Source: Occultella glacieicola (GTDB taxonomy: Bacteria; Actinomycetota; Actinomycetes; Actinomycetales; Beutenbergiaceae). Taken from it: a stretch of 47,124 nucleotides of DNA. Every line of letters begins with the position of its first letter. Within the stretch, counting starts at the first letter, position 1. Shown here piece by piece: positions 1 through 46,974 of this stretch. A model generated the notes under the pieces. It did not search any database. It was given only the letters and a program-made list of their open reading frames with translations, and was not told the origin of the DNA. The stretch is from positions 496,001-543,124 of the forward strand of contig NZ_SMNA01000003.1 of assembly GCF_004353825.1 (NCBI RefSeq), written 5' to 3'. Both the position numbers and the translations under genes were made by a program.

Positions 1-1
1 C

Positions 2-5565: not shown

Positions 5566-6423
5566 ATGGCGAGTGTCACCGAGAACACCTCGCCCGTCGA
5601 TGAACTCCACATCTACGAGCCACACCGGGCCGGCCTCCCGAAACTCGGCCCTTACACCAGGCAGTTGTGGGCCCGTCGGGAGTTCGCCGCAGAGTTCTCA
5701 CGCGCCGGTATCCGTGCAGCGAACACGCAGACCCTCTTCGGCCAGCTCTGGTTGGTGCTCAACCCGACACTCCTTGCCCTGGTGTACTACGTGCTCGTGA
5801 GCGTGATCCGCCAGAGTGCCGGCGGATTCGAGACCCTGGCCCACATCACCTGCGGGCTCTTCCTCTTCTACTTCGTCTCGGGGAGCATCACCCAGGGCGC
5901 CCAGTCGGTGACGGGGGGCGGGAAGCTCATCATGAACATGAACTTCCCACGGCTGCTGCTGCCTTTCGCGGCCGTGCGGACCGCGTTCTTCCGGTTCCTG
6001 CCCACCGTCCCGGTGTACTTTCTCATCCACATCCTGGCCGGCGGAGTCTGGAGCCCCCAGATGCTGTTGGCGAGCGTCTTCCTGGGGCTCACGGTCATCT
6101 TCTGTATCGGGATGGCCGCCATCTTCGCGACGGTCCAGGTCTACTTCCGGGACACGTCGAGCTTCCTGCCCTACCTCGTCCGGATCTGGCTGTATCTCTC
6201 GCCTGTGCTCTGGTTCGCCGACGAGGCTCCGGAGCAGTTCCAGGACCTGATGGTGCTCAACCCCTTGTACTCGCTGATCGGTAGCTGGACCGACCTGCTG
6301 CTTCGCGGGATCATCCCCGAGCCGAAGATGTGGCTGGCCGCGTCGATCTGGGCCGTTCTCGCCTTCGTGGGCGGATCACTGCTGTTCATGTCTAGGGAGC
6401 GTGAGTTCACTGTCCGCCTCTGA
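5566..6423 (+). CDS. wzm: ABC-2 polysaccharide export permease (Wzm/TagG-like)
   Basis: FGQLWLVLNP, FPRLLLP, VYFRD, YLSPVLW and LNPLY motifs. Hydrophobic, and followed by its ATPase. Confidence 0.92.
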   Translation: MASVTENTSPVDELHIYEPHRAGLPKLGPYTRQLWARREFAAEFSRAGIRAANTQTLFGQLWLVLNPTLLALVYYVLVSVIRQSAGGFETLAHITCGLFLFYFVSGSITQGAQSVTGGGKLIMNMNFPRLLLPFAAVRTAFFRFLPTVPVYFLIHILAGGVWSPQMLLASVFLGLTVIFCIGMAAIFATVQVYFRDTSSFLPYLVRIWLYLSPVLWFADEAPEQFQDLMVLNPLYSLIGSWTDLLLRGIIPEPKMWLAASIWAVLAFVGGSLLFMSREREFTVRL

Positions 6424-7312
6424 TTCCACACCGACGCCGACTCCGGGCGGCACGGAGGTTCCGGTCGCGGGCCCCGAGGACGGAGCGAACCCGACCGCCC
6501 CGCACGTCGGCGAACCGGCTCAACCCCCGGCCACGGCCGCCGCTCCCCCGCCGGTCGTCTCCGTCCAGAACGTATCGATCACCTATCGGACGACGTTCGA
6601 GGCGGCTCCGACCCTCAAGAACACCATCGTTCGGCTGGGTCGGGGCGAGCGCAAGGTGAAGGTCGTCGATGCGGTCAAGAACATGTCGTTCGACATCAAG
6701 CCGGGAACCTCGGTCGGGATCATCGGGGCCAACGGCGCGGGAAAGTCGACACTGATGCGCGCCATCGCGGGAGTCCTGCCACCGAGTCAGGGCCGCATCG
6801 AGGTCCGCGGCCGGATCAGTGCCCTCCTTGCCCTCGGGGTCGGGTTCAATCCGAACCTGACCGGCCGGGAGAACGTGATCCTGGGCGGCCTCGCCGCGGG
6901 ACTGACCCGTGCCGAGGTGAAGGAGCGCGCCGACGAGGTCGCCGACTTCGCGGAGATCGGCGACTTCATGGACATGCCGATGCGCACCTACTCCTCGGGG
7001 ATGTACCAGCGTCTCGCGTTCTCCGTCTCGGTCCACATGGACCCCGACATCCTGCTCGTCGACGAGGCGCTCTCGGCGGGTGACGCGAGTTTCAAGGTGA
7101 AGGCCACCGCCAAGATGGCCGAACTCATGGAGAGCGCCCGCGCGATGTTCCTGGTCTCCCATTCACTCGGATCGATCCGGGAGATGTGCAACGAGGTGCT
7201 CTGGATCCACAAGGGCGAACTGATCATGCAGGGTTCCCCGCGGCGGGCGATCCGTGCCTACACGAACTTCCTCAAGGTGGGCGAGAACGCCTATACCTTC
7301 GAGGACCTCTGA
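6401..7312 (+). CDS. wzt: ABC polysaccharide export ATP-binding protein (Wzt/TagH-like)
   Basis: Walker A GANGAGKST, GFNPNLTGREN, signature YSSGMYQRLAF, Walker B ILLVDEALSAGD and the SH switch. Exact start uncertain (Pro-rich N-terminus). Confidence 0.93.
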   Translation: MSSLSASDSTPTPTPGGTEVPVAGPEDGANPTAPHVGEPAQPPATAAAPPPVVSVQNVSITYRTTFEAAPTLKNTIVRLGRGERKVKVVDAVKNMSFDIKPGTSVGIIGANGAGKSTLMRAIAGVLPPSQGRIEVRGRISALLALGVGFNPNLTGRENVILGGLAAGLTRAEVKERADEVADFAEIGDFMDMPMRTYSSGMYQRLAFSVSVHMDPDILLVDEALSAGDASFKVKATAKMAELMESARAMFLVSHSLGSIREMCNEVLWIHKGELIMQGSPRRAIRAYTNFLKVGENAYTFEDL

Positions 7313-22666: not shown

Positions 22667-23770
22667 TCAGCGGGTGAGGAAGGACGCGGCCATCAGCCGC
22701 AGCGGCGCCTCGGTGGCGAACATCTGGGTCAAGTCTCGGGTGATCACGGTCGAGGGGTGACCGTGCCGGCGCCGCTGGAGCGCGAGGGAGATCAGTCGTT
22801 CCGCGTTCCCAGAACGCCCCAGGATGGCGTCGAGGAGCCGGCGGTCGGCCAGTGAGAGCACGGCCTCGACGCCCGGCGCGGCGTCGAGCAGCCGACGAGC
22901 GACCTTGGCCAGGGAGGCACGCTCGGCGTCGGTCCAGAACTCCGGGTCGTTCCGGTTGTGTACGGCGCCGAACAGGTGGATCCGGATGAACTTCACGCAC
23001 GCCGACCGGCGCTGCTCCAGCGTCAGAGCCTCGAACCACGGCTGCCGCACCAGCCGTCGGAGGAACCTGAGTTCGTCCTTGATCGGGCGCTGGACGTACG
23101 TGACCCGGTCCGCGGCGTCCTCCCCGATCACGTACGCAGGGCCCCACCGGTCGAACACCGCCTTCCCGCCGAACCACAACCGCGTCACGAAGCCGACGTC
23201 ACCGCCCACCTGAGCGCGCTCCTCGAGTCGCAGTCCCAGGCGGGTGATCGCGGCCCGGGAAACCAGACCGAGTGGAGCACTCCGGTAGGAGAGCCGGTCG
23301 GCGACCGGGTCAAGCTCCTTGCGCCGGAACGGCCGGGTGGGCGGCGTCCGGACCATCCGGTGCTCCAGGCCGAGCACGAGCCGGGCCACGACGGCGTCGG
23401 CACCGGTCCGGCGGGCGAGCCAGAACCAGGACGATATTGCCCCCGGCAACAGGGTGTCGTCGGAGCCCATGATGGCCACATACTCGGCGGTTGCCAGGTC
23501 GATGCCGGCGTTGAACGGGCCGGACGCGCTCCGGTACGGGTCACGGTGTTCCAGGAACCGCACCTGGTCGCGGTGGTGGGCGTCCAGTAGCGGTCCGATC
23601 TCGTCGGCACCGATGTTGTGGCAGACGACCGTGAGACGGACCCCCTCGCCGTTGCGGTCGAGCACGGACCGGACGGCCCGCGCGATCGGCCGCTCCGTGG
23701 AGTGGACGGCGATGATCACGTCGACGCCGACCCCGCCCTTCGGCTCCATGTCCGCACCCGGCTCAGGCAC
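22667..23770 (-). CDS. Glycosyltransferase family 2
   Basis: VDVIIAVH, SGPFNAGID and YVAIMGSDD (DxD region). GTG at 23770 follows GGAGG and overlaps the upstream stop. Confidence 0.85.
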   Translation of the reverse strand: MPEPGADMEPKGGVGVDVIIAVHSTERPIARAVRSVLDRNGEGVRLTVVCHNIGADEIGPLLDAHHRDQVRFLEHRDPYRSASGPFNAGIDLATAEYVAIMGSDDTLLPGAISSWFWLARRTGADAVVARLVLGLEHRMVRTPPTRPFRRKELDPVADRLSYRSAPLGLVSRAAITRLGLRLEERAQVGGDVGFVTRLWFGGKAVFDRWGPAYVIGEDAADRVTYVQRPIKDELRFLRRLVRQPWFEALTLEQRRSACVKFIRIHLFGAVHNRNDPEFWTDAERASLAKVARRLLDAAPGVEAVLSLADRRLLDAILGRSGNAERLISLALQRRRHGHPSTVITRDLTQMFATEAPLRLMAASFLTR

Positions 23771-24878
23771 GGCGACCCTCCGCGGCTGCCCGGTACCCGG
23801 CCACATACCCGGCTCCAACTCGAGCGGCTGAGAACGAGTCACCGATGGTCTCGGCGATGTCCGAGGCGTTCAGGTGCCGGGTCCGCCGCTCCGTCTCGAC
23901 GATCGCGTCCGCGTACGCCGAGGCTTCCTGGAGGTCCACGAGGGTCCCGACCTCGGGCCGGATGTACTCGCCCTGGCCGCCGGTCGCGCCGACGACCACG
24001 GGTCGTCCGTGCACCAGTGCCTCGGCCGCGGACACACAGAAATTGTCCGCGCGCGTCGGCAGGAAGAACAGGTCCGCGGCGTTGAGGGCCGCGGAGACTC
24101 CGGCCGCGTCGGCCGTTCCGGCTAGACGCACCCGGTGTCCGACCTTGCGCTTGCGGGCCCGGCGCTCGACCGCCTCGCGCAATTCGCCGTCCCCCACCCA
24201 CGTGAGGTGCGCGGACACACCGCGGCGCGCCAGCTCCGCGACCGTGTCGACCGCGAGGAGCGGATCCTTGCGGTCCACGAGTCCGCCTACGGCGACGAGT
24301 CGCAGCGGCATGCGTGGTCGCATCGGCCGTGGGGCCAGATGCTGCCGCGGGGGCACGATGCACGGCACGACGGCGGTCGGTGCGTCCGCGCGGGCGGACC
24401 GGATCGGGCCGGCCAGGTACTCGCAGACCCCGGTGACGACGTCGGGCATCCGCAACAGCGGCCGCAGCAGCGGCAGGGCCGCACGCGCCGCGAGCGGGAG
24501 GGTCGCCGGCGTCGTCAGACCGGACCAGTGCTCGGTGTGGACCCAGGGCGCGTCGGGCCGATTCAACCCGAACGGCAGCAACGACGAGAACGCCATCGTG
24601 TGGACCACATCGGCACCTGCGAGCAGTGAGCCCAGCGAGCGGGCGACCGTCAGGATGTCGAGCGGGGAACGGGTGGACATCGGCACCCGCCGGACCCTGA
24701 GGCCCTCGCGGGTGAGAGCGCGGATGCCATCGTCCTGGTGCGGCGGGACGAGGTGCAGCACGTCCACCGAGTCGATCTGCGGTCGAGCAGCGATGGCGGC
24801 TACGTCCTTCGCGACGAACGCGCCGCTACTGGGGGCGCGTTCGGTCGGAAACCAGGTTGTCACGGCGATGATCCGCAT
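23763..24878 (-). CDS. Glycosyltransferase family 4
   Basis: TTWFPT..SGAFV, HTEHWS, VGGLVDRKDP and DNFCVSAAEALVHGRPVV. ATG at 24878. Confidence 0.88.
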   Translation of the reverse strand: MRIIAVTTWFPTERAPSSGAFVAKDVAAIAARPQIDSVDVLHLVPPHQDDGIRALTREGLRVRRVPMSTRSPLDILTVARSLGSLLAGADVVHTMAFSSLLPFGLNRPDAPWVHTEHWSGLTTPATLPLAARAALPLLRPLLRMPDVVTGVCEYLAGPIRSARADAPTAVVPCIVPPRQHLAPRPMRPRMPLRLVAVGGLVDRKDPLLAVDTVAELARRGVSAHLTWVGDGELREAVERRARKRKVGHRVRLAGTADAAGVSAALNAADLFFLPTRADNFCVSAAEALVHGRPVVVGATGGQGEYIRPEVGTLVDLQEASAYADAIVETERRTRHLNASDIAETIGDSFSAARVGAGYVAGYRAAAEGRRA

Positions 24879-24884
24879 ACGCTG

Positions 24885-24995: not shown

Positions 24996-26075
24996 ATGCC
25001 CGCAACCATCCGCGCCACGGTCGGCGATCTGTTGGACACCTACCAACGGATGGATGGCTGCTCCCCGGACGAGCACCACGACGAGGTTCGACAGCACCCC
25101 ATGGCCGAGGCCAAGTACATTCTGGCCTGCGTCGACACGTTCAGAAGTTCGCTGATGAGCGAGGACGAACTGGCCACTCGGATGGTGGGTTCGTTCGCGC
25201 GCCTCGAGGCCCATCGTCTGGACGACACCGGTCACGCCGGATGGGGCCTTGGCTTCGCGTACGGAGCCGGGTCAGCAGACGAGACGTATGTGATCACCAC
25301 CACGCTGGTGGTCCACGCCCTCCACAGCGTGACGACGTTCGCGCCCGCTGCGGTTCCTCCCGGCTGGATCGATCTGCTCCGGTCGGCAACCGACTACCTC
25401 CTCCACGCTGCGCGCGTGGGCACTCCGGACGGTGACCTGATCGCCTACTCGCCGAGGAACGATCTCCCGACTTACAACGTGACCGCGATGTGGAGTGGCG
25501 TCCTGAGCGAGGTCCTCGGGCCGGACCACCCCGACGGGGCCGGGATCCGGCAGGTGGCGAACGACCTCCTCGGGCGACGCATCCCCGGGGGCGGGTGGAC
25601 CTACGGGCCTGGATCGATCCGGGCGGACCTCCTGCACACCTGCTACACCGGGGTCGGGCTGACGATGGCACTCCCCGACCAGATCGACGCGCTGGACCGC
25701 ATGTTCCTCGAGGACATCCTTCGGTTCAGCAGCACGCCTGTCTGGTTCGATCGCTATGACCTGCACACCGTCGAGGATCTCCTGGCGGGTGAGGTCCCTG
25801 GTCTGGGACGAGGGGTCCACGTGGTGAACGGCAACGCCCTGGTCGGGTTCGATGCACCCGCACGATCCTGGTCGATGGGGGAGCTCCTCGTCGTCATCTC
25901 CGAGGCGGCCGCGCGTCCGACGACGGGAAGATACTGGATGGCCCAACTCCGCCGGCTCGCGCGGTCGACCACCGAGGTGCAGCTGCCCGAGAACTGGTTC
26001 CGACACTCGATGCACATCGCACACGGCCTCGCGAGCGCACTGCGTGTCCTGCGCGCGGATCAGGGGTCGTCATGA
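24996..26075 (+). CDS. Hypothetical protein, putative (alpha/alpha)-barrel of a type seen in polysaccharide loci
   Basis: GGAG RBS before ATG 24996. Spaced motifs GWGLGF, YSP..TYNVTAM, GGWTYG and DLLHTCY between amphipathic helices. ATGA-coupled to the next gene. Confidence 0.65.
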   Translation: MPATIRATVGDLLDTYQRMDGCSPDEHHDEVRQHPMAEAKYILACVDTFRSSLMSEDELATRMVGSFARLEAHRLDDTGHAGWGLGFAYGAGSADETYVITTTLVVHALHSVTTFAPAAVPPGWIDLLRSATDYLLHAARVGTPDGDLIAYSPRNDLPTYNVTAMWSGVLSEVLGPDHPDGAGIRQVANDLLGRRIPGGGWTYGPGSIRADLLHTCYTGVGLTMALPDQIDALDRMFLEDILRFSSTPVWFDRYDLHTVEDLLAGEVPGLGRGVHVVNGNALVGFDAPARSWSMGELLVVISEAAARPTTGRYWMAQLRRLARSTTEVQLPENWFRHSMHIAHGLASALRVLRADQGSS

Positions 26076-27532
26076 GGCCGGGCCTGCGCAACTGGCTACT
26101 GGCTCGCCGACGCCCTCCGGCGGCTACGGAGCGCGGATCAGCGGAGAGCGTCGATGCGTCCCCAGCAGTGCCGCGAACCGTCGCAGTCGAGCGCGAGCAG
26201 AGTGGATCGCCCGACATGCCCCCGTTCGTCCACTTCGCGAAGATGCAGGACTTCTACCGATTCGCGTTCCTTCCTGACGGCTATCCGGGTCGCGCAGGGT
26301 CAGACGGCTCGATCTTCCCCCACCCCATCTATGGCACCTATGCGCTCATCGACTACCTGAAGCAGTACGCGAGGGATCCACGACCGGAGCTGCTGCAGGC
26401 GATCTCGCGCGTGGCTCACGCCGCAATCTCGCGCATGACCCCGTTCAACGACACCCTCGTGTTCTGGTACGAGGCGAATCCGAGCCTGGGCGCCCGCCTA
26501 TACGCGGATCACTACTCGGGGCTGACACAGGCCTATTACGCAGTGCAACTAGCCCGAGCAGGCACGGTTCTCGAGGATGCTTCGGTGCGTACGGCCGCGG
26601 AATCCGTGTTTCGCAGCCTCTTGGTTCCTGCCGAGGCCGGCGGGGTGTTGCACCGCACGCCGGCGGGTCCGGTGATCGCCGAGGTACCCCAGACGCCGAA
26701 CAGCTGGATCCTGAACGGTTGGCTCTCAGCGCTAACGTCCATCCAGGAGTTCTCTGACATCACCGGGTTGGACGAAGCCCGAGACCTCATTCACGACAGC
26801 ACTCGAACCATGGCACGCGTTCTTCACCTGTATGACGAACCTGTCAAACGGACCAGCCGATACGGCTTGACCGGTTTCGCCTATCTTCGCCTCCGCTTCG
26901 AGCACCTCCCTCAGTCTCTGCAGGACGTGACACTGCATATCCCAGGCGAGCCGGACATCGTCCTTCCGACCGGGTCGGGAACCCGTTGGCAGCCCTATGT
27001 CTTCGGCCCAGACATGGTGCGCACGACTCCGAAGACGACGACGGTTCGGATCAATGCGGTCCTCTCGCTCGCGAGTGCGCCAGAACCCAACCGAGTCGGC
27101 TTCACCGCCACAACGGAGAGTCCGGGCACCGTGACTCTCGAAGGGATGCTCGGCGCGTACGAGCCGACGGCATCATCGCCGGTGAACGCTGAATGGAAGG
27201 AGATCGCGAGCACCACCATTCCTTCGGGCACCTCGAGCTGCATGATGGACATCCCAGCGTTCGTGGTTGATTCGACCGTCTATCCCACGAACTTCGCCAA
27301 GAAGATCGAGGGGCAGAACGTCAACGTCTACCACAGCATCCATATTCAGCGTCTGCGGCAACTGCATGGCCGGACCGGCGTCGACGAACTCCTCACATGG
27401 GCGGACAAGTGGCACGGATACATCGCCGACTGGGCGACGATGCCGACCTACTCCGGCCTGGCATTCAGGGACCCGGTCAGCGGGAAGGTTCGGCCGGTGA
27501 CGGATCAGCCTGCAGCCATCGAGGGGTCCTGA
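26072..27532 (+). CDS. D-glucuronyl C5-epimerase family protein with a large insertion
   Basis: HYSGLTQ, GGV, EVPQTPNSWILNGW, LHLYD..SRYGL, YHSIHIQRL and W..Y match, in order, the GLCE C-terminal domain motifs (WYSAMAQG, EEYPT.P.SFVLNGF, LPLYD..YDL, YH..HI.QL). Confidence 0.8.
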   Translation: MRPGLRNWLLARRRPPAATERGSAESVDASPAVPRTVAVEREQSGSPDMPPFVHFAKMQDFYRFAFLPDGYPGRAGSDGSIFPHPIYGTYALIDYLKQYARDPRPELLQAISRVAHAAISRMTPFNDTLVFWYEANPSLGARLYADHYSGLTQAYYAVQLARAGTVLEDASVRTAAESVFRSLLVPAEAGGVLHRTPAGPVIAEVPQTPNSWILNGWLSALTSIQEFSDITGLDEARDLIHDSTRTMARVLHLYDEPVKRTSRYGLTGFAYLRLRFEHLPQSLQDVTLHIPGEPDIVLPTGSGTRWQPYVFGPDMVRTTPKTTTVRINAVLSLASAPEPNRVGFTATTESPGTVTLEGMLGAYEPTASSPVNAEWKEIASTTIPSGTSSCMMDIPAFVVDSTVYPTNFAKKIEGQNVNVYHSIHIQRLRQLHGRTGVDELLTWADKWHGYIADWATMPTYSGLAFRDPVSGKVRPVTDQPAAIEGS

Positions 27533-27761
27533 GTCGGGAAATGCTCCGTCGTCTCGAACTCACCCTCCATCACCGATGGCCAGACTGGTCGAGCATGGAT
27601 CCGTTGAGCCGTGTCGAGCCCAATGCTGGTCCCGGCCAGCACGCTGCCGATCCGCTGTCGGCAAGACGCATCACATACCGAGGCGTGATCAACGCCGTTG
27701 AGGACACCTTTCCTGCAGTGTTGACGGGCTGGCGTCCGAGTCCAAGGGAGACCGAAGTACG

Positions 27762-29543
27762 GTGTCGAGTAGCCAGTTCCTTCTGAGTTACGCGTGCGAC
27801 CGAGAAGACGCAATGTCATCTGCTGAGCTGCGACTGCGCCTCGATTCTGCGACCTCGCATCTCGAGTCTCTAGTTCGCACAGAGGTCGAGCGAGTCGATG
27901 TCGGCGATGGTCGAGTTGGGTTCTCCGCGTGGCGGTACGTCGACGCGGGAAACTCGTGGCCCGTGGTGGCCACGCGAGAAGGTGTGGCGGCCGCCTGGCT
28001 ACACACACCGCCAGCTGCCGGCCCGATCGAGAACGCGGCGGATCCGATCGATCTCGCTCGGGATATCACCAACGGAACCACAGATCGAGCGGAACTCGGC
28101 GCGCCGGCCGCCGCGTTCTACTTGTCCGAGTCAGGGCTGCGAATTTCCAATGACCGCCTTGGCATGGTCCGGCTCTACGAGTTTGCGGTGAAGGGCTTCG
28201 GCCACGTCTGGAGCAGCCGTCCGGGTCTCGCTCACATCTTCGGCGGCCTGGTTCCTCGGCTCGAGCAGTCGACCTGGAGCGATATGGCGACGCTGGGATG
28301 GGCGGCAGATGGCAGCGCGCACCTGGGTAACGGTCACCAGATGGCTGCGAGCACGACGATCCAGGTCGACCGAAACGGACACACCGTGTCGTCGTCCGAC
28401 CGTGACGAGTGGCTTCGGGCCGCACTGGACGGCGACGTTCCTTCGATCGTTGATGGCGCTCGGGGAATGGTTCGCTCAGTCGCTGTCGCTTCGTGGTGGC
28501 AAGGAAGTCCGGTTGCCGATCTCTCGGGTGGCAAGGACTCGCGCGTGACGGCCGCAGCTGCGATCCGAGCTGGCGTCGTCAGCACGGTGAGGACTGTCAA
28601 CACCGATACCGGCGAGGTGGACACGGCCAGGGAGTTGCTTCGTCTCGCCGGAAATCCGGTCGCGCATCGGGTGGACCAGGTCGTGGAGCCGAAGAAGCCT
28701 CAAGGCGGCGTCCTCACCCGATACCTCTCCATGCACCGGGCCTGGGAGGGCGCCTACAACGCCAGGTCGGCCTACCGATCGATTGAGTTCCGAGGCTTCA
28801 CTTCGCCGTCGGCGCCCCGGATCAACGGCCTTGGCGGCGAAGCGATCCAAGGGCGAACGATGGTCAGCCCGGCGTGGCGCGAGAAGCTGGAGGGTGGGGG
28901 GCCGGACGCGGGACGGTCGCGGCTCGCACAGATGGTTCGGTCGGGCGCTGCCGGCGTCACAGATGCGGGGATCGAATGCTCCCTAGCGTCGATCGACTGC
29001 TTCGTCGATCGCGCCTTGATGGTTGATATGGCTACCGCATTCATGGTCGTGGATTACTTCTACCACTTCAGCAAGATGCCATTCTGGTCGATGCCGCAGG
29101 CAAGTTCGAACACGCTGCTTCCGTTCTATTCCCCGCAGGTGCTTCCACGCACCATGTGGTCGTTGTCACATGCTGCAGCCGAGTACGGGCAACATCATCG
29201 CGACCTACTTCGAGAGCTACAGCCCGCGTGGGCCGATGTGCCGTTCTACAAGGGATCGGTGAAGACACGGGGCACACCGTGGATGTGGGAGAACGCTGAC
29301 TGGCGAGAGATGTCGAGCACGGTGCTCGACGGGGTTGGTTCGTTGGACACCTTCTCGACGAGGGCTGTGAGCCAGTTCGTCCAGGAGGCCGAAATGGGCA
29401 CAGGAAACGTTCGCCACGAACTGGCACTGACGCGCGTGATGTGGGAACTGAGTTTCCGCGAGTACGTCAAGGAGGTTGCACGCGCTGCGGAGGCGACCTC
29501 GAGGGAGGTTTTACGCGTTCGGGCCGCCGAACGAAGGCGTTGA
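27762..29543 (+). CDS. Asparagine synthetase-like protein (adenine-nucleotide alpha-hydrolase domain)
   Basis: NDRLGMVRLY, PP-loop DLSGGKDSR, NGLGGE and LPF. No N-terminal catalytic Cys. Start uncertain. Confidence 0.75.
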   Translation: MSSSQFLLSYACDREDAMSSAELRLRLDSATSHLESLVRTEVERVDVGDGRVGFSAWRYVDAGNSWPVVATREGVAAAWLHTPPAAGPIENAADPIDLARDITNGTTDRAELGAPAAAFYLSESGLRISNDRLGMVRLYEFAVKGFGHVWSSRPGLAHIFGGLVPRLEQSTWSDMATLGWAADGSAHLGNGHQMAASTTIQVDRNGHTVSSSDRDEWLRAALDGDVPSIVDGARGMVRSVAVASWWQGSPVADLSGGKDSRVTAAAAIRAGVVSTVRTVNTDTGEVDTARELLRLAGNPVAHRVDQVVEPKKPQGGVLTRYLSMHRAWEGAYNARSAYRSIEFRGFTSPSAPRINGLGGEAIQGRTMVSPAWREKLEGGGPDAGRSRLAQMVRSGAAGVTDAGIECSLASIDCFVDRALMVDMATAFMVVDYFYHFSKMPFWSMPQASSNTLLPFYSPQVLPRTMWSLSHAAAEYGQHHRDLLRELQPAWADVPFYKGSVKTRGTPWMWENADWREMSSTVLDGVGSLDTFSTRAVSQFVQEAEMGTGNVRHELALTRVMWELSFREYVKEVARAAEATSREVLRVRAAERRR

Positions 29544-29602
29544 CGTCTTCGCGACCGTGACGAACCTGAATTCCCCAGCCGAATGATCCCGAACCGCAGT
29601 GG

Positions 29603-31078
29603 TCAGCCACCCACACGGGCATAGAGTTCGGCCAGTTTGCCCTCCTGGCTCTCCCACGAGTACACGTTCTCGAGCGAGTTCCCGGTGACCTTGGCCCGAT
29701 ATTCGGGCAGCGCCCCGAAGACCTCCTTGAGCGCCCTGGCACAGTCCGCGGCATCACCGAAGGAGAACGTCTCGCCGACAGCGGTCCGTCGGACGAACGC
29801 GCCCATCTCCTGAAGGTCGCTGACCACGATCGGCAACCCGGCGAAGATGTAGTCGAACAGCTTGTTCGGCAGGGCCATCTCGTGGTTCGGGATGTCGCCG
29901 ATCATCGGGTGCACCCCGACATCGGCGGAGCGTAGATAGCTGAGGACCTCCTCCGGCTTCACGGGTTCGAGCAGATGCACCCGGTCCACCACCCCGAGTT
30001 CCGTCGCTCGTCGGGCGAGCTCGCGTGAGAGTTTGTGACTCACGCTGGGGACACAGATGACGGCCAGGTGCACCTCAGGCAGGAAGGTCAGGGCCTCGAC
30101 CACGGTGGCGACTCCCCGCTTCTCGGCCATCGAACCGGAATACGCCAGGAGTGGCACATCGCGGCCGAGACCACAATCGGTGCGGATGTCTGAAGGCGCT
30201 TCCGCGATCTCCTCGACCACCGGGGCATTGAGAACGACCGTCGGACGATCCGGGAGCCGATAGACCCGCTGCAACGCGTCCGCGATCGACTCACTCACCG
30301 TGATGACCCCATCGGCCGCTCTGGTGTAGTGCTTCTCCATCTGTGCCCACGCACGTCGCTGCCGCTCGGAGGTACGCACGGCACCGACCACGAATTCGTG
30401 CGCGTCGTAGATCAACGTCGGTCGCACCCGGTGTGCTCGCATGTGATTCGTGGCGTTGACCGCTGCCTTCAGGACGTGAGCGTCGTGGGCGTGAATGATG
30501 TCGGGCTTCTGCCGCCAGATCTCACGCGTGAAGGACAGGCTCAGGTCGGAGAACTGGGTGACCTCGCGGCGCCAGTCCAGCCGTCGCGGCACGGCGTCTG
30601 GATCGGCCTGCTGCTCCCAATAGGCGCGGATGCGCTCTTCCCTGCGCTCGTGGAATCGAACCCGCCAGTCGAAGAACATCCGGGGCAGCCTAAGGAGCGC
30701 ACGCACGGGAAGGGCGTACCGGGATGCGCGCAAGCCTGCCAGCGTGTTCTGATAGCGAGCCCACTCGAGGTCGCTCTCCGAGATGAATCCTGGGAAACCC
30801 GACCGGTAGGCCCGGCGCTCCCGCTCCAGTTTCGCCTTCGTGGCTGTCATCCCGTAGGGCTGTGGAATACCGAGGGTCGCGACGTCGCCGAGCGTGCCTC
30901 GAACAGGCTCCGTGATGCCCTGCAGCCCATACAGCAACGTCACGTCGAACCCGAGCCGCTGGACGGACTGCGCGGACTTGCGAACACGAGCGTCGGCGAC
31001 GATGTCGTGATTGACAACCATGACGACCTTTCGTCGGCCACGTCGCCCAGGCCTCGTCGCCCTTGATGTCAATGCCAC
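29603..31078 (-). CDS. Glycosyltransferase family 4 (close paralog of 16022..17440)
   Basis: DARVRKSA, IHAHD, YDAHE, ITVSE and NHEMALPNKLFDYIFAGLP. Confidence 0.9.
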   Translation of the reverse strand: MALTSRATRPGRRGRRKVVMVVNHDIVADARVRKSAQSVQRLGFDVTLLYGLQGITEPVRGTLGDVATLGIPQPYGMTATKAKLERERRAYRSGFPGFISESDLEWARYQNTLAGLRASRYALPVRALLRLPRMFFDWRVRFHERREERIRAYWEQQADPDAVPRRLDWRREVTQFSDLSLSFTREIWRQKPDIIHAHDAHVLKAAVNATNHMRAHRVRPTLIYDAHEFVVGAVRTSERQRRAWAQMEKHYTRAADGVITVSESIADALQRVYRLPDRPTVVLNAPVVEEIAEAPSDIRTDCGLGRDVPLLAYSGSMAEKRGVATVVEALTFLPEVHLAVICVPSVSHKLSRELARRATELGVVDRVHLLEPVKPEEVLSYLRSADVGVHPMIGDIPNHEMALPNKLFDYIFAGLPIVVSDLQEMGAFVRRTAVGETFSFGDAADCARALKEVFGALPEYRAKVTGNSLENVYSWESQEGKLAELYARVGG

Positions 31079-32326: not shown

Positions 32327-33801
32327 CGTTCCCCCCATAGGACGCTCCGGTACAGGGCGACCAGACGCTCCACCTCGTGCTCCCAGGTGAGTGCGGTGGT
32401 GGCTGCTCGAGAGGCCGCACGGTATCGCTCCGGATCCGCCAGCACCCGGGTCATCGCCGCTGCGAGCCCCTCCGGCCCGTCCGACTCGAAGACCAGACCG
32501 ACTCCATACTCGGCGACCACGTCGGCGGTGTCCGGGAGATTGGCGGCCGCGATCGGCAGGCCCGCGTGGATGGACTCGAAGAGCTTGTTCGGCAGGGAGT
32601 AGTAGTAGCTCAGGCAGGTAGGCCGGACATACACGACGGCGAGGTCAGCGTCGGACAGCGCGTCGGCGACCTCCGCGGAGGGAACCTTGCCGACGAAGTG
32701 CACACGGTCCCGCAACCCAGCGGTCCGGGCCCGCTCGGCGAGCGGACCGACGTAGTCCGGTTCGCCGTAGCCGAGGAGCACGAGGTGGACCTCGGGACCC
32801 ATGAGGTTCAGGGCGTCGATCGTCTCCTCGATGCCACGGTTCGTGGTGAGCCGGCCGCTGTACGCGATGACCTTGGTTTCGGCAGGCAGGCTCGCGAGCT
32901 CGCGCAGACGCCCGGTGCCGGCTCCGCTCGGCAGGTCACCGGTCGCGGGGATGTTCCGCACCAGCACCGGGCGGTGGAGCAGACCATAGGTGCGCTGCAG
33001 CCAACTCGCGATGCTCGGGGAGACCGTGACCACTCCGGCGGCCCGGCGGATACCGGCCCGTTCGATGAGGTGCTCCACGTGCGGGGCGACCGGGCGCTTG
33101 CGGACATTGCGGTGACGCCACAATTCGTGGGCGTCGTAGATGATCCTGGTCCCGGTGCCGCGGGCGGCCAGCATCGCCGGAGCGAGAGTGTTGCCGTCGT
33201 TCGCGTGGATGACGTCCGGTCGCCAGCGCCGCACGGCCCCGACCGCGCGCGCCCAGTACACCGTGAGGCTGACGGTCCGGTACGCCTTGAGCCACAGGTC
33301 GAAGAACGCAGCGAACGCCCGGGCACTCAGCGGCGCCGCGGCCGTCGGTGCGACCAGGGGCTGCTGCGCCAGGAACGCCGTCGGCGGCGTGCCACAGCCA
33401 TCAGCGTCGCGCGCGGTCGCCGCGACCGACTCCGTCGTCGCAGGTGCAGCACCGTCCGCCACGGGTGCGTCGATGGCTTCCTCCACCGCCACCACCTCGC
33501 CTCGTTCGGCAAGCCCCCGGGCGCGTCCCATCACCCACCGGTACGCGCCCGCAAGCCAAGGGACGGACCGGGCGAGTTCGAACTCGGGCAGCCGCTCGAG
33601 TTCCACGCCACTGTCCAGCCGCTCGATCGTGGCCGGAAAGCCCGAACGGGCCCGAGCGACCGCGAAGATCTTCACGTGCGCTCCGGCTCGGTGGAGGCTC
33701 GCGGCGGTCTTGAGTACACGTGAGTCGGCGTGCGCGTCGTTGTAGACGAGCACGGCCACGCGCGCGGGTCGGTCACCGACCCGCAGGTCAACGTCGGTCA
33801 C
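32323..33801 (-). CDS. Glycosyltransferase family 4
   Basis: DSRVLKTA, IHAND, YDAHE, VTVS and SLPNKLFESIHAGLP. Confidence 0.9.
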   Translation of the reverse strand: MTDVDLRVGDRPARVAVLVYNDAHADSRVLKTAASLHRAGAHVKIFAVARARSGFPATIERLDSGVELERLPEFELARSVPWLAGAYRWVMGRARGLAERGEVVAVEEAIDAPVADGAAPATTESVAATARDADGCGTPPTAFLAQQPLVAPTAAAPLSARAFAAFFDLWLKAYRTVSLTVYWARAVGAVRRWRPDVIHANDGNTLAPAMLAARGTGTRIIYDAHELWRHRNVRKRPVAPHVEHLIERAGIRRAAGVVTVSPSIASWLQRTYGLLHRPVLVRNIPATGDLPSGAGTGRLRELASLPAETKVIAYSGRLTTNRGIEETIDALNLMGPEVHLVLLGYGEPDYVGPLAERARTAGLRDRVHFVGKVPSAEVADALSDADLAVVYVRPTCLSYYYSLPNKLFESIHAGLPIAAANLPDTADVVAEYGVGLVFESDGPEGLAAAMTRVLADPERYRAASRAATTALTWEHEVERLVALYRSVLWGER

Positions 33802-35606
33802 TGCGGTTCGATCTCTCCGGTCAGGCCGGCCAGGGCAGCCTGCTCGGCGAAGTCCGCCTCGGCAGCGACGACCTCGTCGAACGTGCCGTGGGCCACGAGT
33901 TCCCCGTCCCGCATGAAACAGACCACGTCGCTGTGCCGGATCGTCGCGAGCCGGTGTGCGACCACCACCATCGTGACGTCACCGCGCAGCTCCCGGATCG
34001 CCGAGGTGACCGCCGCCTCCGTGGAGGTGTCCAGGGCGCTGGTCGCCTCGTCCATGATCAGCACGAGCGGGTCGTTGTACAGGGCGCGGGCGATTCCGAT
34101 CCGCTGCCGCTGACCGCCGGACAGGCTCAGGCCCCGTTCGCCGATCCGGGCGTGGATCCCGTCCTCGCGGGCCTCGACCACGTCGAGGATCTGCGCGCGA
34201 GCGAGGGCGCGGCGCACCCGGTCCTCGTCAACCTGTTCCGGGATCCAGGTCAGTGCGACGTTCTGCGCGACGGTCGAGTCGAACAGGGAGACCTCCTGCG
34301 GCACGTACCCGACCCGGGAACGCCAGTCGTCGAGGACGGTACCCATCGGGGTGGTCCCGACCAGGATCCGACCGGCACTTGGCTCGAGCAGCCCGAGCAT
34401 CAGGTCCACCAACGTCGACTTCCCCGAGCCGGAGGCGCCGACGAGGGCCAGCGAGTGCCCGAACGGCAGGGTCATGCTCACCTCGCGTACGGCCTCGGTG
34501 GAGCCACTCGGGTAGGTGAAGCTCACGTCCTCGAGCGTGAGCCGGTCCGCCTCGGCGGGAATCGGTGCCGTGGTGCCCTCCGCTGGTCTGGCTTCGCGGC
34601 GCTGGTCACCCTTGCGGATCTCGTCGAGCACTTGCTGAGCGAACGGCATCGACGCCCCGGTCTGCGCCATGATCGACTGGAACCTGGTTAGCGATGGCAC
34701 GATCCGGAACCCGGCCACCCCGAACAGCGCGACTGCGCCGAGCGCCCCGGTGACACCGTCCTGCAGGTATCCCACGCCTGCCCCGATCGCCAGCCCCCCG
34801 ATGAGGCCGGCCTCGAGGACGTACCGGGGCACCACACCGAGGAAGGACATGTTCGCCCGGGCGTGGGAGCTCTTCAGGCGCACCTGACGAACGACGCCAG
34901 CAACCTCGGGCCCCTTTCCACGCAGCGTGATCTCCTTGAGGGAGTGCACCATCTCGCTGACCAGGCGCACCGAGCGCGTGGAGTAGTTCCTGTTCACCCG
35001 CCCGGCCTCCACCGCCTTGCGCAGCACCCACAAGTACAGGAACGCGCCGATGACCCCGAAGTAGGCGATGGCCACCAGGGCGATCACCGGTTGGGCGACG
35101 ATGAGAACCACCAGTACCGCCACGAACGTGAAGATCTCGCCGGAGAGCATGGCTGCCGGGATGAGAACGCCGGAGACGGTCGTCGCCACCCCGACGTCGG
35201 TGGACCGGACCAGGTCCGTGGAGTTGCGACCGAGCCGGTCCGTCCAGGGCGACTCGAAGAAGGCGTTCAGCAACTGGCTGCCGAGGTCCTGTTCGAACCT
35301 GGCGAAGCGACGGGTGGCGAAGTACTGCAGGGTGACCGCGAAAACGCTCTTCGCGACGATCAGGGCACCGACGATGACGAGCATGTTCCGGAAGTCGGTC
35401 GGTTCGCTGAGCGTCCAGCCGAGGACCGGGATCGTCAGTTCTGCGCCGGAGATCATCGGGGCCATCGTGATCGCCAGCAGGCCGAGGGCGGCGACGTCGA
35501 GGATCGACAGGGCCGCGGAGAGCACAGCGAAGGTCACGATGAAACGCGAGCTACCGCCGGGCAGCACGGCAAGCAGGTCACGAACGATGCGCCACAGGGC
35601 GGCCAT
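33798..35606 (-). CDS. Fused ABC transporter permease/ATPase (PglK/MsbA-like lipid-linked glycan flippase candidate)
   Basis: N-terminal six-TM domain, GASGSGKST, VGYVPQ, LSGGQRQRIGIARALY, LIMDEATSALD and AHRL. Coupled to the downstream GTs. Confidence 0.9.
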   Translation of the reverse strand: MAALWRIVRDLLAVLPGGSSRFIVTFAVLSAALSILDVAALGLLAITMAPMISGAELTIPVLGWTLSEPTDFRNMLVIVGALIVAKSVFAVTLQYFATRRFARFEQDLGSQLLNAFFESPWTDRLGRNSTDLVRSTDVGVATTVSGVLIPAAMLSGEIFTFVAVLVVLIVAQPVIALVAIAYFGVIGAFLYLWVLRKAVEAGRVNRNYSTRSVRLVSEMVHSLKEITLRGKGPEVAGVVRQVRLKSSHARANMSFLGVVPRYVLEAGLIGGLAIGAGVGYLQDGVTGALGAVALFGVAGFRIVPSLTRFQSIMAQTGASMPFAQQVLDEIRKGDQRREARPAEGTTAPIPAEADRLTLEDVSFTYPSGSTEAVREVSMTLPFGHSLALVGASGSGKSTLVDLMLGLLEPSAGRILVGTTPMGTVLDDWRSRVGYVPQEVSLFDSTVAQNVALTWIPEQVDEDRVRRALARAQILDVVEAREDGIHARIGERGLSLSGGQRQRIGIARALYNDPLVLIMDEATSALDTSTEAAVTSAIRELRGDVTMVVVAHRLATIRHSDVVCFMRDGELVAHGTFDEVVAAEADFAEQAALAGLTGEIEPQ

Positions 35607-40854: not shown

Positions 40855-40907
40855 GACATACCTCACAGAGACGGCTGGGTTCGGGTACAGAGTGCCAGAA
40901 GCGTCCT

Positions 40908-40973
40908 CGCGGGACCTCCCGCGGCGCGCCGGGGGCCGTCCTGGCGGCCCCCGGCGCGCATTTCCGGTCCCGC
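40908..40973. other. Strong nested stem-loop structure in the divergent intergenic region
   Basis: gcgcgccgggggccg (40924-40938) pairs perfectly with cggcccccggcgcgc (40945-40959). The outer gcgggacc (40909-40916) can pair with ggtcccgc (40966-40973). Confidence 0.75.
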
Positions 40974-41049
40974 CCAACCCGGACGCACCACGGCCTAGGA
41001 CGTTCGAGTCGTGGGCGACCGGGTGTCGGACCCCTGCCACAATGTGCCC

Positions 41050-41724: not shown

Positions 41725-41734
41725 GGAGGCTCCC

Positions 41735-44385: not shown

Positions 44386-45558
44386 ATGCCAGCAACCGAC
44401 ATGTCCTCGCGCCCTGCCCACGGCCGGCGCCGCGCACCGCGACACTCCCGGCGGGTCAACCGCCACCAGGTGCTCCGCGGTGCTCTGCTCGCGCTCATCG
44501 GGATCTTCGCGTTCGCCGGGACCGGGGCCGCCCTGACGTACAACTCGCTGCAGGGCAACATCGACCAGCACGACCTCAGCTCGATCCTCGGCGAGGACCG
44601 GGAGAGCCCGTCGCCCGCACAGCCGGGCGACCCCGCCGAGGGCCGGGCCTACAACCTGCTCGTGCTCGGCTCGGACACCCGCACGGGTGACAACTCCGAG
44701 TACGGCGAGGCCGAGGGTCAGCGGTCGGACACCACGCTCGTGGTGCACATCTCCGCGGACCGGTCCCGGGTGGACGTGATCTCCATCCCCCGTGACCTGA
44801 TCGTGGACATCCCGAGCTGCCCGCTCCCGGACGGTTCCGAGACCGGCGAGTCCTACGACGAGCGCTTCAACGCCGCGTTCGCCTACGGCGGCCAGTCCGG
44901 CGACACCGCCTACGCCGCGGCCTGCACGATCCTGACCGTGGAGGAGATGACCGGTCTGTTCATCGACGACTTCGTCGTCGTCGACATGGAGGGCTTCAAG
45001 GACATGGTGAACGCCATCGGCGGCGTGGACATGTGCTTCGAGGAGGACATGGTCTCCCCGGAGGCGAACCTGAACATCACGGCCGGGTGCCACACGCTCG
45101 ACGGTGAGACCGCCCTCGCGGTCGCCCGGGCCCGCAAGGGCATCGGCAACGGCTCCGACATCGGCAGGATCGACCGACAGCAGGAACTCCTGACGGCGAT
45201 GGTCGAACAGGTCCTGGCGAAGAACCTGCTCACCGACTCCGCCGGGCTGTTCCAGTTCCTGCAGGCCGCGACCGCCTCGCTGAGCACCAGCAACGGGATC
45301 GGCAACATCACCTCGATGGCCGGCCTCGCGTACTCGCTGAACGACGTCGGGATCGACAACTTCACGTTCGCCACCGTGCCGTTCGACTGGTCCGGGAACG
45401 TGGTGCTGCAGAACGCCGACTCCGAGGCGCTCTGGGCGTCGGTGGCCGCGGACCAGCCGCTGGTGCTGCCGCCGGACCCCGACGCGACCGACGGCACCGG
45501 GACCGAGGACACCTCGGGGGCAACCGGCGAGGGCCAGGAGGAGCCCGGCCAGGGCTGA
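44386..45558 (+). CDS. LCP (LytR-CpsA-Psr) family glycopolymer-peptidoglycan ligase
   Basis: N-terminal TM, NLLVLGSDTR, RSDT, SIPRD, ARARK..SDIGRIDRQQ. Confidence 0.93.
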   Translation: MPATDMSSRPAHGRRRAPRHSRRVNRHQVLRGALLALIGIFAFAGTGAALTYNSLQGNIDQHDLSSILGEDRESPSPAQPGDPAEGRAYNLLVLGSDTRTGDNSEYGEAEGQRSDTTLVVHISADRSRVDVISIPRDLIVDIPSCPLPDGSETGESYDERFNAAFAYGGQSGDTAYAAACTILTVEEMTGLFIDDFVVVDMEGFKDMVNAIGGVDMCFEEDMVSPEANLNITAGCHTLDGETALAVARARKGIGNGSDIGRIDRQQELLTAMVEQVLAKNLLTDSAGLFQFLQAATASLSTSNGIGNITSMAGLAYSLNDVGIDNFTFATVPFDWSGNVVLQNADSEALWASVAADQPLVLPPDPDATDGTGTEDTSGATGEGQEEPGQG

Positions 45559-45609
45559 CCGACAGGACCCGCCACTCCGGCGCGCCCGTCGCGCGGACCC
45601 GATGAGACC

Positions 45610-46974
45610 ATGGAAGCGATGAATCGGCAGCCCAGCAGTCCCCGAGCCCGGCACGCCGCGCCGCCCCGCAGCCGGCGCTCTGTCGGCGTCGATCGCGGGC
45701 GCACCCCGGTGCCCGCCGCCGGGTCCGGCCGGGCGCCCCACGGGAGCGCGGGCCGCGGCCTCGCCGGCCTGGTGCGGCACGCCCGCCGGCGGCGGCGTCC
45801 CAGGCGGCACGCCGTTCCGGTCGCCGGCCTCGCCGTGGCCCTGTTCGCCGTCAGCGGCGCCGCCCTCGCCTACGACGATCTGAACCGCAACATCGGCGGT
45901 GGCGACGTCGAACCGCTGCTCGGCACCGACCGGCCGGAGCCGGCTCCCCCGGTGGACGGCGCCGCCGGTGCGGCCGTGAACCTGCTGCTGATCGGCTCCG
46001 ACGACCGGTCCGGGGAGAACGCGTCGATCGGCGGCGGCAACGTCGAGTCCGGCATCCGCTCGGACACCGTGATCCTCGCCCACATCTCGGCGGACCGGAC
46101 CCGGGTGGAGATGGTCTCGATCCCCCGCGACTCCTGGGTGGACGTGCCCTCCTGCGAGCTCCCCGACGGGTCGATGACCTCGCCGCTGACCGGGAAGTTC
46201 AACAACGCCTTCCAGCAGGGCGGCCAGACCGGGGACGTCACCTACGCGGCTGCCTGCACGATCCGCACGGTCGAAGGTCTCACCGACGTCCGCATCGACG
46301 GGTTCGTCGCCGTGGACTTCGGCGGTTTCGTGGACATGGTCGACGCCATCGGCGGCATCCCGATCTGCATCCCGGAGGACATCGACGACGACAACGCCCA
46401 CCTGCAGTTGAGCGCGGGCGAGCAGGTCCTCGACGGCACCCAGGCCCTCGGCTACGCCCGGGTGCGCAAGTCGGTCGGTGACGGCAGCGACATCGGGCGG
46501 ATCGGCCGGCAGCAGGCGCTGCTGGCCGCCACGGTGCGCCAGGTCCTGAACCAGAACGTGCTCACCGACGCGCCGCGGCTGTACGGCTTCCTGGACGCGG
46601 CGACGGCGTCGCTGAGCACCAGCTCCAACTACGCCTCGATCTCCGCGTTGTCCGGGCTCGCCTACTCGCTGCGCGGCCTCGGCAGCGAGGACATCTCGTT
46701 CGTGACCGTGCCGATCACCGACCGTGGCGACGGCGCCAACGTGCTCTGGACCGATGAGGCCGATGCCCTGTGGGAGGCCATCGCCGCCGACCGGCCGCTG
46801 ACGGTCGAGGGCACCGACGACGGGACCGCCGACGCCAGCCCCGACCCTGGGACCGATGCCTCGACGGACCCGACCGAACCGACCGGTGCCGCCGCGTCCT
46901 CCACGGCCACGGCCGATCCCGGTCCTACCCTCGAGGGAACCACCGCCGACGACGGGAGTGCCCAGTGCGGGTGA
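45610..46974 (+). CDS. LCP (LytR-CpsA-Psr) family protein, second tandem copy
   Basis: NLLLIGSDDR, RSDT, SIPRDS, YARVRK..SDIGRIGRQQ. Arg-rich cytoplasmic N-terminus; start approximate. Confidence 0.92.
   Translation: MEAMNRQPSSPRARHAAPPRSRRSVGVDRGRTPVPAAGSGRAPHGSAGRGLAGLVRHARRRRRPRRHAVPVAGLAVALFAVSGAALAYDDLNRNIGGGDVEPLLGTDRPEPAPPVDGAAGAAVNLLLIGSDDRSGENASIGGGNVESGIRSDTVILAHISADRTRVEMVSIPRDSWVDVPSCELPDGSMTSPLTGKFNNAFQQGGQTGDVTYAAACTIRTVEGLTDVRIDGFVAVDFGGFVDMVDAIGGIPICIPEDIDDDNAHLQLSAGEQVLDGTQALGYARVRKSVGDGSDIGRIGRQQALLAATVRQVLNQNVLTDAPRLYGFLDAATASLSTSSNYASISALSGLAYSLRGLGSEDISFVTVPITDRGDGANVLWTDEADALWEAIAADRPLTVEGTDDGTADASPDPGTDASTDPTEPTGAAASSTATADPGPTLEGTTADDGSAQCG

Follow-up and report, generated by a model that had tools for sequence, protein, structure and literature searches.

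A GLCE-like C5-epimerase relative and two putative tailoring enzymes in a predicted diacetamido-uronate glycan locus of Occultella glacieicola

The glycan locus of Occultella glacieicola raises the question of what three genes of no glycosyltransferase type do between blocks of glycosyltransferase genes. In the window, the whole 47,124-nucleotide stretch of DNA analyzed here, gene A (24996-26075, a 359-aa ORF), gene B (26072-27532, 486 aa), and gene C (27762-29543, 593 aa) all lie on the plus strand and, as the original prediction had it, sit between glycosyltransferase genes; their neighbors are minus-strand GT4 genes, one divergent from gene A (23763..24881, start approximate) and one convergent with gene C (29603..31078). 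That prediction took the trio for a cassette that edits the uronates of a wall glycan after polymerization. The reading we favor, with a probability of roughly 55%, is that B would convert D-ManNAc3NAcA to L-GulNAc3NAcA on a lipid-linked chain, that C would cap the carboxyl with an amine, and that A would act on the same sugar.

In terms of sugar supply, homologues of wbpA, wbpB, wbpE, wbpD, and wbpI, the steps of the UDP-ManNAc3NAcA pathway given in PMC10622841, are all found at the locus, partly left of the window. The window opens with the 3′ part of a wbpI-type UDP-sugar 2-epimerase gene (1..481, plus strand), the remainder of which lies to the left, and a wbpA-type UDP-sugar dehydrogenase gene sits just beyond the left end. 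On the minus strand follow a wbpB-type Gfo/Idh/MocA 3-dehydrogenase (547..1542), a wbpE-type DegT aminotransferase (1539..2771, true start probably near 2630), and a wbpD-type hexapeptide-repeat N-acetyltransferase (2636..3250). Export is represented by a Wzm/Wzt-type ABC glycan exporter (5566..7312, plus strand) and an MsbA/PglK-type ABC exporter (33798..35606, minus strand), and the products of two LytR-CpsA-Psr genes (44386..46974, plus strand) are predicted as the likely means of attaching the glycan to the wall.

The stop codon of A and the start codon of B share the sequence ATGA, which confirms the translational coupling proposed for these two genes; B and C are separated by 229 bp and are not coupled. 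In O. gossypii an in-frame GTG just 5′ of the A stop gives a similar basic N-terminus of B, so the A-B coupling is conserved, and the GT4 gene matching 29603..31078 directly adjoins gene B there, gene C being missing from this syntenic locus. A scan for promoters and terminators gave nothing above chance. A direct repeat around gene C was considered and rejected, as its two copies in the window have no significant match to each other.

Judged from its sequence, gene B is a relative of the D-glucuronyl C5-epimerases (GLCE family), to which the heparan-sulfate epimerase of animals belongs, and is part of a long-insertion subfamily; it belongs to no shorter bacterial form. It matches the Pfam profile C5-epim_C (PF06662) with an E value of 9.8e-21 and 74.5 bits, above the curated cut-off of 23.3, and the only PDB matches of a profile of 42 B relatives are GLCE chains (best E 4e-13), both in agreement with the GLCE-like character first ascribed to the middle gene. 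B further has an insertion of ~140 residues and a basic N-terminal extension. No match to B was found in phages. The idea that gene A is a distant paralogue of B was rejected on a profile comparison (E 0.19).

With residues of B counted from Met49, Glu156, Asn167, and Tyr372 align in the PDB profile alignment with Glu499, Asn510, and Tyr578 of GLCE, all in the list of five catalytic residues that we took from PMC13308652. Glu156, Asn167, Tyr216, Tyr372, and His373 are invariant in 42/42 relatives; in the 6I01 chain the GLCE Tyr578 position is occupied by Phe. The equivalent of Tyr560 is probably kept as Tyr216, which follows an LYD motif at about the right spacing, the PDB alignment ending before it. 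The catalytic set ascribed to B is nevertheless incomplete, as the position of Tyr500, one of the five, is Val in B and Tyr in none of the 42 aligned relatives; this tyrosine is retained in more distant long-insertion members. The loss of Tyr500 could be taken to mean that the clade of B with Val at this position has little or no epimerase activity and instead fills a glycan-binding or eliminase role, with A, a histidine-rich barrel like the AGE-family epimerases, as the actual epimerase; the archaeal C5-epimerase Agl32 indeed has an AGE-like fold (PMC13308652). We regard this as very doubtful, as the acid and base positions of B are among the invariant residues and A lies within 10 kb of B in just 1 of 22 genome B loci, the other 21 being without it.

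The proposed tie of B to the 2,3-diacetamido-uronate pathway proved to be far above background. A wbpB orthologue is present in 12 of the 13 genomes with a GLCE-like match, compared with 137 of 401 genomes of the order. With stratification by family and our own genome left out, wbpB occurs in 11/12 GLCE-bearing genomes (P = 0.007), and within Streptomyces it occurs in 4/4 epimerase-bearing genomes, a count that is a lower bound, versus 31/151 (P = 0.007 when only the three non-centre genomes are counted), these P values being overstated because the genomes are kin. At least two wbp-type genes lie within 10 kb in just 8 of 22 B loci and none in 11. For 8 actinobacterial B loci with no wbp genes nearby, wbpB is found elsewhere in the genome in every case, at 60-75% identity. 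Among 72,556 plasmids, the two that carry B both bear genes for a dehydrogenase, Gfo, DegT, a 2-epimerase, and an ABC permease.

The wbpB co-occurrence cannot tell manno from gluco substrates. An alternative to which we give a small chance is that the substrate of B is another uronate or a D-gluco residue, GlcNAc3NAcA being turned into its L-ido form: a gluco-configured acid is the substrate of both GLCE and the Bermanella enzyme, wbpB marks both configurations, and GlcNAc3NAcA occurs at the reducing end of the S. griseus polymer (PMC13274773), but a wbpI-type 2-epimerase is present at the locus itself, on both plasmids, and close to B in nine other loci (L012-L016, L018, L019, L076, and L077). 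A D-manno substrate is also favored by Pseudomonas aeruginosa, in which O5 and O18/O20 differ in epimeric residues, D-manno versus L-gulo, despite identical polymerases, the mechanism being left open in the portion of PMC12004945 available.

No signal peptide or other export signal was found in A, B, or C, so editing is likely to be cytoplasmic, on a lipid-linked chain. Of the predicted post-polymerization editing of a wall glycan, action at the level of the chain is thus favored, but action on the wall itself is unlikely. Across the B family, an N-terminal hydrophobic stretch occurs in 16/47 proteins and a lipobox-like motif in 8; exported members would not meet UDP-sugars, which argues for action on polymers. 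The missing export signal of the window's own B would also suit an enzyme that works before transfer, converting UDP-ManNAc3NAcA to UDP-L-GulNAc3NAcA. For the C5-epimerase of E. coli O112ab, PMC7685785 proposes a UDP-L-IdoA route without experimental support, and PMC2615507 argues that sugar modifications mostly precede transfer. We consider such a nucleotide-sugar enzyme improbable, given that signal or lipoprotein peptides occur in many B relatives, among them the sister rows closest to B in a quick tree, and that GLCE and the one tested bacterial enzyme (in vitro) act on polymers (PMC12624080).

Gene C contains the PP-loop noted earlier, as LSGGKDSR at residues 254-261, no position of which is lost in more than one of 73 relatives, and a GxGGE motif at residues 356-360 that is likewise conserved among the 73. 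No Pfam or NCBIfam profile matches C at cut-off, and Asn_synthase gives a weak match in just 1/73 relatives; Atlas clusters with a score of 0.98 to C bear Asn_synthase, however, and hhalign of the C profile against a Pfam Asn_synthase protein gives E 1.6e-5 and a probability of 79%. The match to an AsnB-like protein is collinear and non-significant (E 0.18), and the single PDB match, to an NH3-dependent NAD synthetase, is weak (E 0.6). The glutaminase cysteine, Cys2, is missing in 72/73 relatives. C thus appears from its motifs and profiles to be an asparagine-synthetase-like PP-loop ligase without a glutaminase cysteine; a glutamine amidotransferase was rejected on this ground, and the WbpS-type, glutamine-dependent part of the predicted amidation becomes unlikely while the asparagine-synthetase likeness stands.

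Close C orthologues occur in 3 of 55 genomes of one genus, that of genome G066, in all three with a B-type gene directly downstream; this partner belongs to a separate subclade and is 31-33% identical to the window's B. An NMT1/SsuA-type ABC importer adjoins a C paralogue in these loci. No match to C was found in plasmids. A plain primary uronamide made by C from free ammonia, the WbpS product, would be compatible with the model for B. Uronamides of diamino-uronates are known and are made by AsnB-like enzymes (PMC7468200, PMC2615507), and PP-loop synthetases that use ammonia only exist, the weak PDB match being to one of them. We find this product unlikely, considering the cysteine missing across the C family and the amine-type importer in the loci of close orthologues, and prefer the transfer of an amine.

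Gene A has no family match in Pfam or NCBIfam, and 119 members of its family, which comprises 597 representatives, give only scattered weak matches to Pfam. The AlphaFold model (pLDDT 97, pTM 0.95) is a 12-helix (α/α)6 barrel, the α/α barrel that had been anticipated. Conserved residues are His34, Asn161, Asp211, His214, Arg290, Arg336, and His340, of which His214 (119/119 relatives) begins helix 8 and His340 (113/119) helix 12; strong conservation among polar residues falls mainly on His, Arg, Asn, Tyr, and isolated Asp residues. In VIA-align, GH76 hydrolases are the best structural match (Z 28.0, rmsd 3.3, 307 residues aligned), with cellobiose 2-epimerase (5ZIG) at Z 24.3 (rmsd 3.5, 318 aligned) and GH105 and GH88 at Z 22-24. 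Foldseek ranks AGE-family 2-epimerases first (E 1.5e-6). The fold matches listed for A do not include GLCE, which by itself excludes nothing. At the sequence level, comparison with an AGE profile of just 3 sequences is not significant (E 0.19), and the best PDB hits are squalene cyclases (E 0.01).

We take A to be a sugar epimerase or eliminase that works through a histidine pair; this is the weakest step of the proposal, a tentative assignment that falls a little short of even odds. Slightly less probable is a role in cutting back or removing stalled glycan, as a hydrolase or lyase in the manner of GH76, GH88, and GH105: it would account for the VIA-align ranking and for the low shares of GH76, GH88, and pectate-lyase families among the Atlas neighbors of A. 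GH76 catalysis uses an adjacent pair of Asp residues. No such conserved pair exists in the 119 A relatives, however, and the Foldseek ranking also speaks for an epimerase.

The original prediction fails as regards the three-gene unit, as none of the other genomes and contigs examined combines A, B, and C. C is near B in 0/22 B loci and near A in 0/16 A loci, 8 of which are shorter than 7 kb. A is present in just one other genome of 401, in which C was not found, and the sole plasmid carrying A also carries B. Among metagenome A loci of at least 7 kb, 4/8 have a GLCE-like gene and 5/8 wbp-type genes; locus L080 has, within 16.9 kb, A with a full wbp set and no B. A-B and C-B thus recur as separate pairs. 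A fixed cassette was rejected because the trio was not found elsewhere and the syntenic O. gossypii locus lacks C. The best explanation is that A, B, and C are separately acquired tailoring enzymes, carried as independent add-ons in related genomes, for a wall glycan in which 2,3-diacetamido-D-mannuronic acid is predicted.

In the proposed pathway, the wbpA/B/E/D/I products would yield UDP-ManNAc3NAcA, and glycosyltransferases would assemble the chain at the inner membrane face. Glu156 of B would take the C5 proton and Tyr372 would reprotonate, like Glu499 and Tyr578 of GLCE. C would adenylate the C6 carboxyl with ATP and transfer a small amine such as an amino acid, not glutamine-derived ammonia, and this capping would follow epimerization if B requires a free carboxylate. 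A is likely to be a second acid/base enzyme on the same sugar, and an ABC exporter and the LytR-CpsA-Psr ligases would place the glycan on the wall. Established parts of the proposal are the family assignments, conserved residues, predicted fold of A, missing export signals, and co-occurrence.

A broader reading, speculative and on the unlikely side, is that the long-insertion GLCE subfamily, with exported and cytoplasmic branches, makes L-guluronic diacetamido sugars of bacterial surfaces, and that C (a new cysteine-less ligase class) and A (a new histidine-pair uronate epimerase class) belong with it to a swappable kit. In such a kit C would be specific for the epimerized sugar, and edited surface glycans would be toxin and phage receptors.

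As of 2026, the identified bacterial D-glucuronyl C5-epimerases numbered only one, and its activity had been tested on heparin and not on its own glycan (PMC13308652). Small, soluble, and wbp-linked in actinobacteria, Bacillota, and Rhodobacterales plasmids, B offers a direct test of the origin of L-gulo sugars, with O. gossypii, which has A and B but lacks C, as a natural comparison strain. A and C represent two uncharacterized enzyme families that now have a predicted substrate. Actinobacterial ManNAc3NAcA glycans are receptors of umbrella toxins (PMC13274773), and editing that differs between strains could therefore determine which of them are killed. The literature searched, with subscription carbohydrate-structure papers and bioRxiv supplements outside its scope, yielded nothing relevant on GulNAc3NAcA-type sugars.

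Compared with known systems, B shares with GLCE the C5-epim_C domain and the residues aligned above, but it differs in its valine at Tyr500, in having no membrane anchor, in its tie to diacetamido-uronate genes, and in its Asn-to-Tyr spacing (205 residues; the human GLCE chain has 68 and short bacterial forms have 55-65). Catalogues of bacterial GLCE relatives go back to 2011; the candidates of Raedts et al. (PMC3068255), including that of E. coli O112ab, are likewise strain-patchy PF06662 genes by glycosyltransferases in type-specific polysaccharide loci, but the text of that paper available to us discusses L-iduronic acid only, with no long-insertion subfamily, wbp link, or partners A and C. 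Like WbpS, WbqG, PGN_1234, and Bordetella WbmC/I/Z, C is an asparagine-synthetase-type PP-loop enzyme of a diamino-uronate locus with the C6 carboxyl as predicted target; unlike them, it has no cysteine at its N-terminus, stays below the Asn_synthase cut-off, and has close orthologues beside a C5-epimerase. A resembles the AGE superfamily, GH76/GH88/GH105, and Halobacterium Agl32 in its (α/α)6 barrel, in which every other helix begins with conserved residues, but its structural alignments with AGE and the GH families show 4-15% identity and no family profile matches it. The genetics of such a wall glycan, of which the original prediction knew no description, are in part known from the Streptomyces griseus utrA-J teichuronic-acid locus (PMC13274773), although the terms C5-epimerase, glucuronyl, guluronic, and uronamide were not found in the text or supplements of that paper, and the epimerase and amide steps were not found there. 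Both loci are actinobacterial, with wall ManNAc3NAcA, a wbp-like pathway, and variable accessory genes; the one described here differs in using Wzm/Wzt export and in carrying about a dozen GT4 genes.

The three neighboring genes are ORFs on the + strand between − strand GT4 genes: gene A at 24996–26075, gene B at 26072–27532, and gene C at 27762–29543. An ATGA overlap joins A to B, and a gap of 229 bp separates B from C. Among named organisms, Occultella gossypii supplies the closest relatives of both A (81% identity) and B (86%).

The assignment of gene B to the D-glucuronyl C5-epimerase (GLCE) family, made originally from motifs, is borne out by a match to PF06662 (E 9.8e-21) and by a 42-sequence B profile, for which GLCE chains are the sole matches in the PDB. 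The expectation that the GLCE catalytic residues would have equivalents in B holds for three of the five and probably for a fourth (Y560). The residues named in the accessible part of PMC13308652 (E499, Y500, N510, Y560, and Y578) correspond, numbered from Met49, to E156, V157, N167, probably Y216, and Y372 of B; all are invariant in 42/42 relatives with the exception of V157, the Y500 column holding Tyr in 0/42 aligned sequences. Tyr is kept at this position in remoter members, from Bacillota, plasmids, and one further genome (G066). Tyr108 of B, also invariant, is a candidate for filling the space of Y500. The spacing from Asn to Tyr is 180–213 residues in the B subfamily versus 68 in the human chain, and about 140 residues are therefore inserted inside the B barrel. 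Two different GLCE-like genes share a single locus in three cases (L016, 5325–8247; L007, 9469–17024; L135, 11962–14414).

B tracks the UDP-ManNAc3NAcA pathway, for which the 3-dehydrogenase gene wbpB served as marker. Among 401 genomes of the order, a wbpB orthologue is present in 137 and a GLCE-like match in 13 (four of them long-type); 12 of the 13 are wbpB-positive, and the one exception is an 89% complete genome. With stratification by family and our own genome left out, 11/12 are wbpB-positive (P 0.007), a value that overstates the association because kin genomes are not independent. In Streptomyces, 31 of 151 genomes have wbpB, and all four of the GLCE-like matches, a floor count of at least four, fall among these 31. 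The 22 genome loci with B include eight with two or more wbp-type genes and 11 with none within the stretch; genome-wide searches for eight of these 11 found wbpB at 60–75% identity in 8/8, the other three being two Flavobacteriales loci and the syntenic O. gossypii locus (L001), whose stretch ends before the wbp position. Both B-bearing plasmids carry the wbp pathway including the 2-epimerase, and the B–wbp link covers several phyla. These two are small plasmids of the repABC type, from Paracoccus (L123, NZ_CP025434.1) and Limimaricola (L124, NZ_CP139697.1); A is present as well on the one from Paracoccus.

No hydrophobic segment was found in A, B, or C of the window. Across the families, such a segment occurs in 16/47 B proteins versus 0/77 C and 0/144 A proteins, and eight of the 16 have a lipobox-like motif by our own pattern. 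Several signal-bearing B members are isolated, far from a sugar locus; lone signal-bearing or lipoprotein-type relatives stand among unrelated genes in L002, L004, L006, L017, L022 (near 10001), and L009 (near 4476), and wbpB lies elsewhere in the genome in 5/5 of these searched. In a quick tree, the B of the window belongs to a clade of nine rows that lack a signal (support 94), amid signal-bearing relatives. We infer that the family comprises polymer-level enzymes with exported and cytoplasmic branches, and that the B of the window would act on a lipid-linked chain before ABC export.

Gene A was originally described as an alpha/alpha-barrel protein, and its structure model is indeed a 12-helix (alpha/alpha)6 barrel (pLDDT 97). 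With a threshold of E 0.001, 597 representatives make up its unnamed family. VIA-align of the model puts GH76 at the top (Z 28.0, rmsd 3.3, 307 aligned); next come cellobiose 2-epimerase, with Z 24.3, and GH105/GH88. Foldseek ranks AGE-family epimerases first. The conserved residues H34, T101, N161, D211/H214/Y217, R290/W292, and R336/H340 lie at the starts of six alternate helices, the usual catalytic face in (alpha/alpha)6 barrels; A may be a histidine-pair acid/base enzyme or, a little less probably, a hydrolase. Of the 401 genomes of the order, two have A, and each of these also has B; the one plasmid with A likewise carries B. Eight of 16 metagenome A loci are at least 7 kb long, and among those eight a GLCE-like gene is present in four and wbp-type genes in five; one locus (L080) has A with a full wbp set and B absent from 16.9 kb. 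Several A relatives, from several lineages, are fused to or beside SAM methyltransferases (P0157, P0175, and P0183; L073, L076, and L077).

The asparagine-synthetase-like character of gene C stands by its PP-loop and GxGGE motif, conserved in the family, by its place among Asn_synthase clusters in the Atlas protein-cluster resource (0.98), and by a profile match to a Pfam-positive protein (E 1.6e-5); it does not stand by domain models, Pfam and NCBIfam giving no match for C and the Asn_synthase Pfam a weak match in 1/73 relatives. Ntn glutaminases need an N-terminal cysteine. Cys2 is absent in 72/73 relatives, which argues against the WbpS-type amidation first proposed, and the nitrogen donor of C likely differs from that of WbpS-type enzymes. 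A carboxyl is nonetheless a plausible target because WbpS-type enzymes amidate diamino-uronates, according to the portions available of PMC7468200 and PMC2615507.

The syntenic O. gossypii locus has no C, and B there directly adjoins the following GT gene; searches of three genomes from the same genus did not find C either. The GC3 of C is 0.73 versus 0.81–0.93 in the flanking genes measured. The 3′ end of B in L001 (11275–11340) aligns to the window both at the end of B (27500–27545) and after C (29550–29610), each with 0/1000 shuffles, and the two window copies have no significant match to each other; this is possibly a scar of C gain or loss. In the genus of G066, a close C (56–63%) occurs in 3/55 genomes, with a long-insertion epimerase directly downstream in 3/3. 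These epimerases are 31–33% identical to the B of the window, so C is paired with two distant B subclades. The same loci also encode an importer of the NMT1/SsuA type as well as a paralogue of C. In the glycan loci L055 (4721–8457) and L140 (6883–11534), the genes upstream of a C paralogue encode an NMT1/SsuA-type ABC importer, an amidohydrolase, and a Na/glutamate symporter, a hint that the amine donor may be imported. Remoter C-like genes stand alone (L057, L059) or lie beside or fused to heparinase II/III-like domains: the two are adjacent in L065 and L067 and fused in a 1518-aa protein in L063 (9607–14160). A second, distant asparagine-synthetase-like ORF lies elsewhere in our own genome (C19, 211685–213586).

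The A–B–C trio was seen in the window alone, and A–B and C–B pairs recur separately, which speaks against the single cassette originally predicted. Contigs of equal length point, indirectly, to two further A–B pairs and two further B–C pairs.

L-GulNAc3NAcA occurs in a teichuronic acid of Actinoplanes, and other bacteria have uronamides formed with taurine or amino acids. In the pathway we favor, at a probability of roughly 55%, UDP-ManNAc3NAcA would be synthesized, the glycan assembled in the cytoplasm, C5 inverted by B to give L-GulNAc3NAcA, an amide cap added by C in an ATP-dependent step, a further acid/base step contributed by A, and the product exported and attached to the wall. A catalogue of candidate GLCE enzymes from prokaryotes dates from 2011 (PMC3068255), and one bacterial C5-epimerase is reported as identified (PMC13308652), as far as the available parts of these papers extend; the accessible text of PMC12004945 gives no explanation for the D-manno/L-gulo epimers of P. 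aeruginosa O-antigens. A search largely confined to literature outside subscription journals found no link of a C5-epimerase to diacetamido-guluronate.

The surrounding locus encodes Wzm/Wzt, a second ABC exporter, about 12 GT4 enzymes, one acyltransferase, and two LCP proteins. Also encoded inside it (17479–19518 and 37909–41964) are proteins that combine FG-GAP repeats with a SpoIID or an Amidase_2 domain; a relative of A in L074 is flanked by a comparable pair. In a same-genus genome (G063; L146, 1–14588), wbpB/E/D directly adjoin three GT4 genes and an ABC exporter whose window counterparts are about 28–35 kb from wbpB/E/D, and the block holding A, B, and C therefore looks accessory. The pathway genes are of the wbpB/E/D type, with a 2-epimerase cut at the window edge and a UDP-sugar dehydrogenase-type gene just beyond it. 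As a whole, the gene set agrees with the route of five enzymes to UDP-ManNAc3NAcA (PMC10622841) and with the utr core of Streptomyces (PMC13274773), as described in the available portions of those reports.
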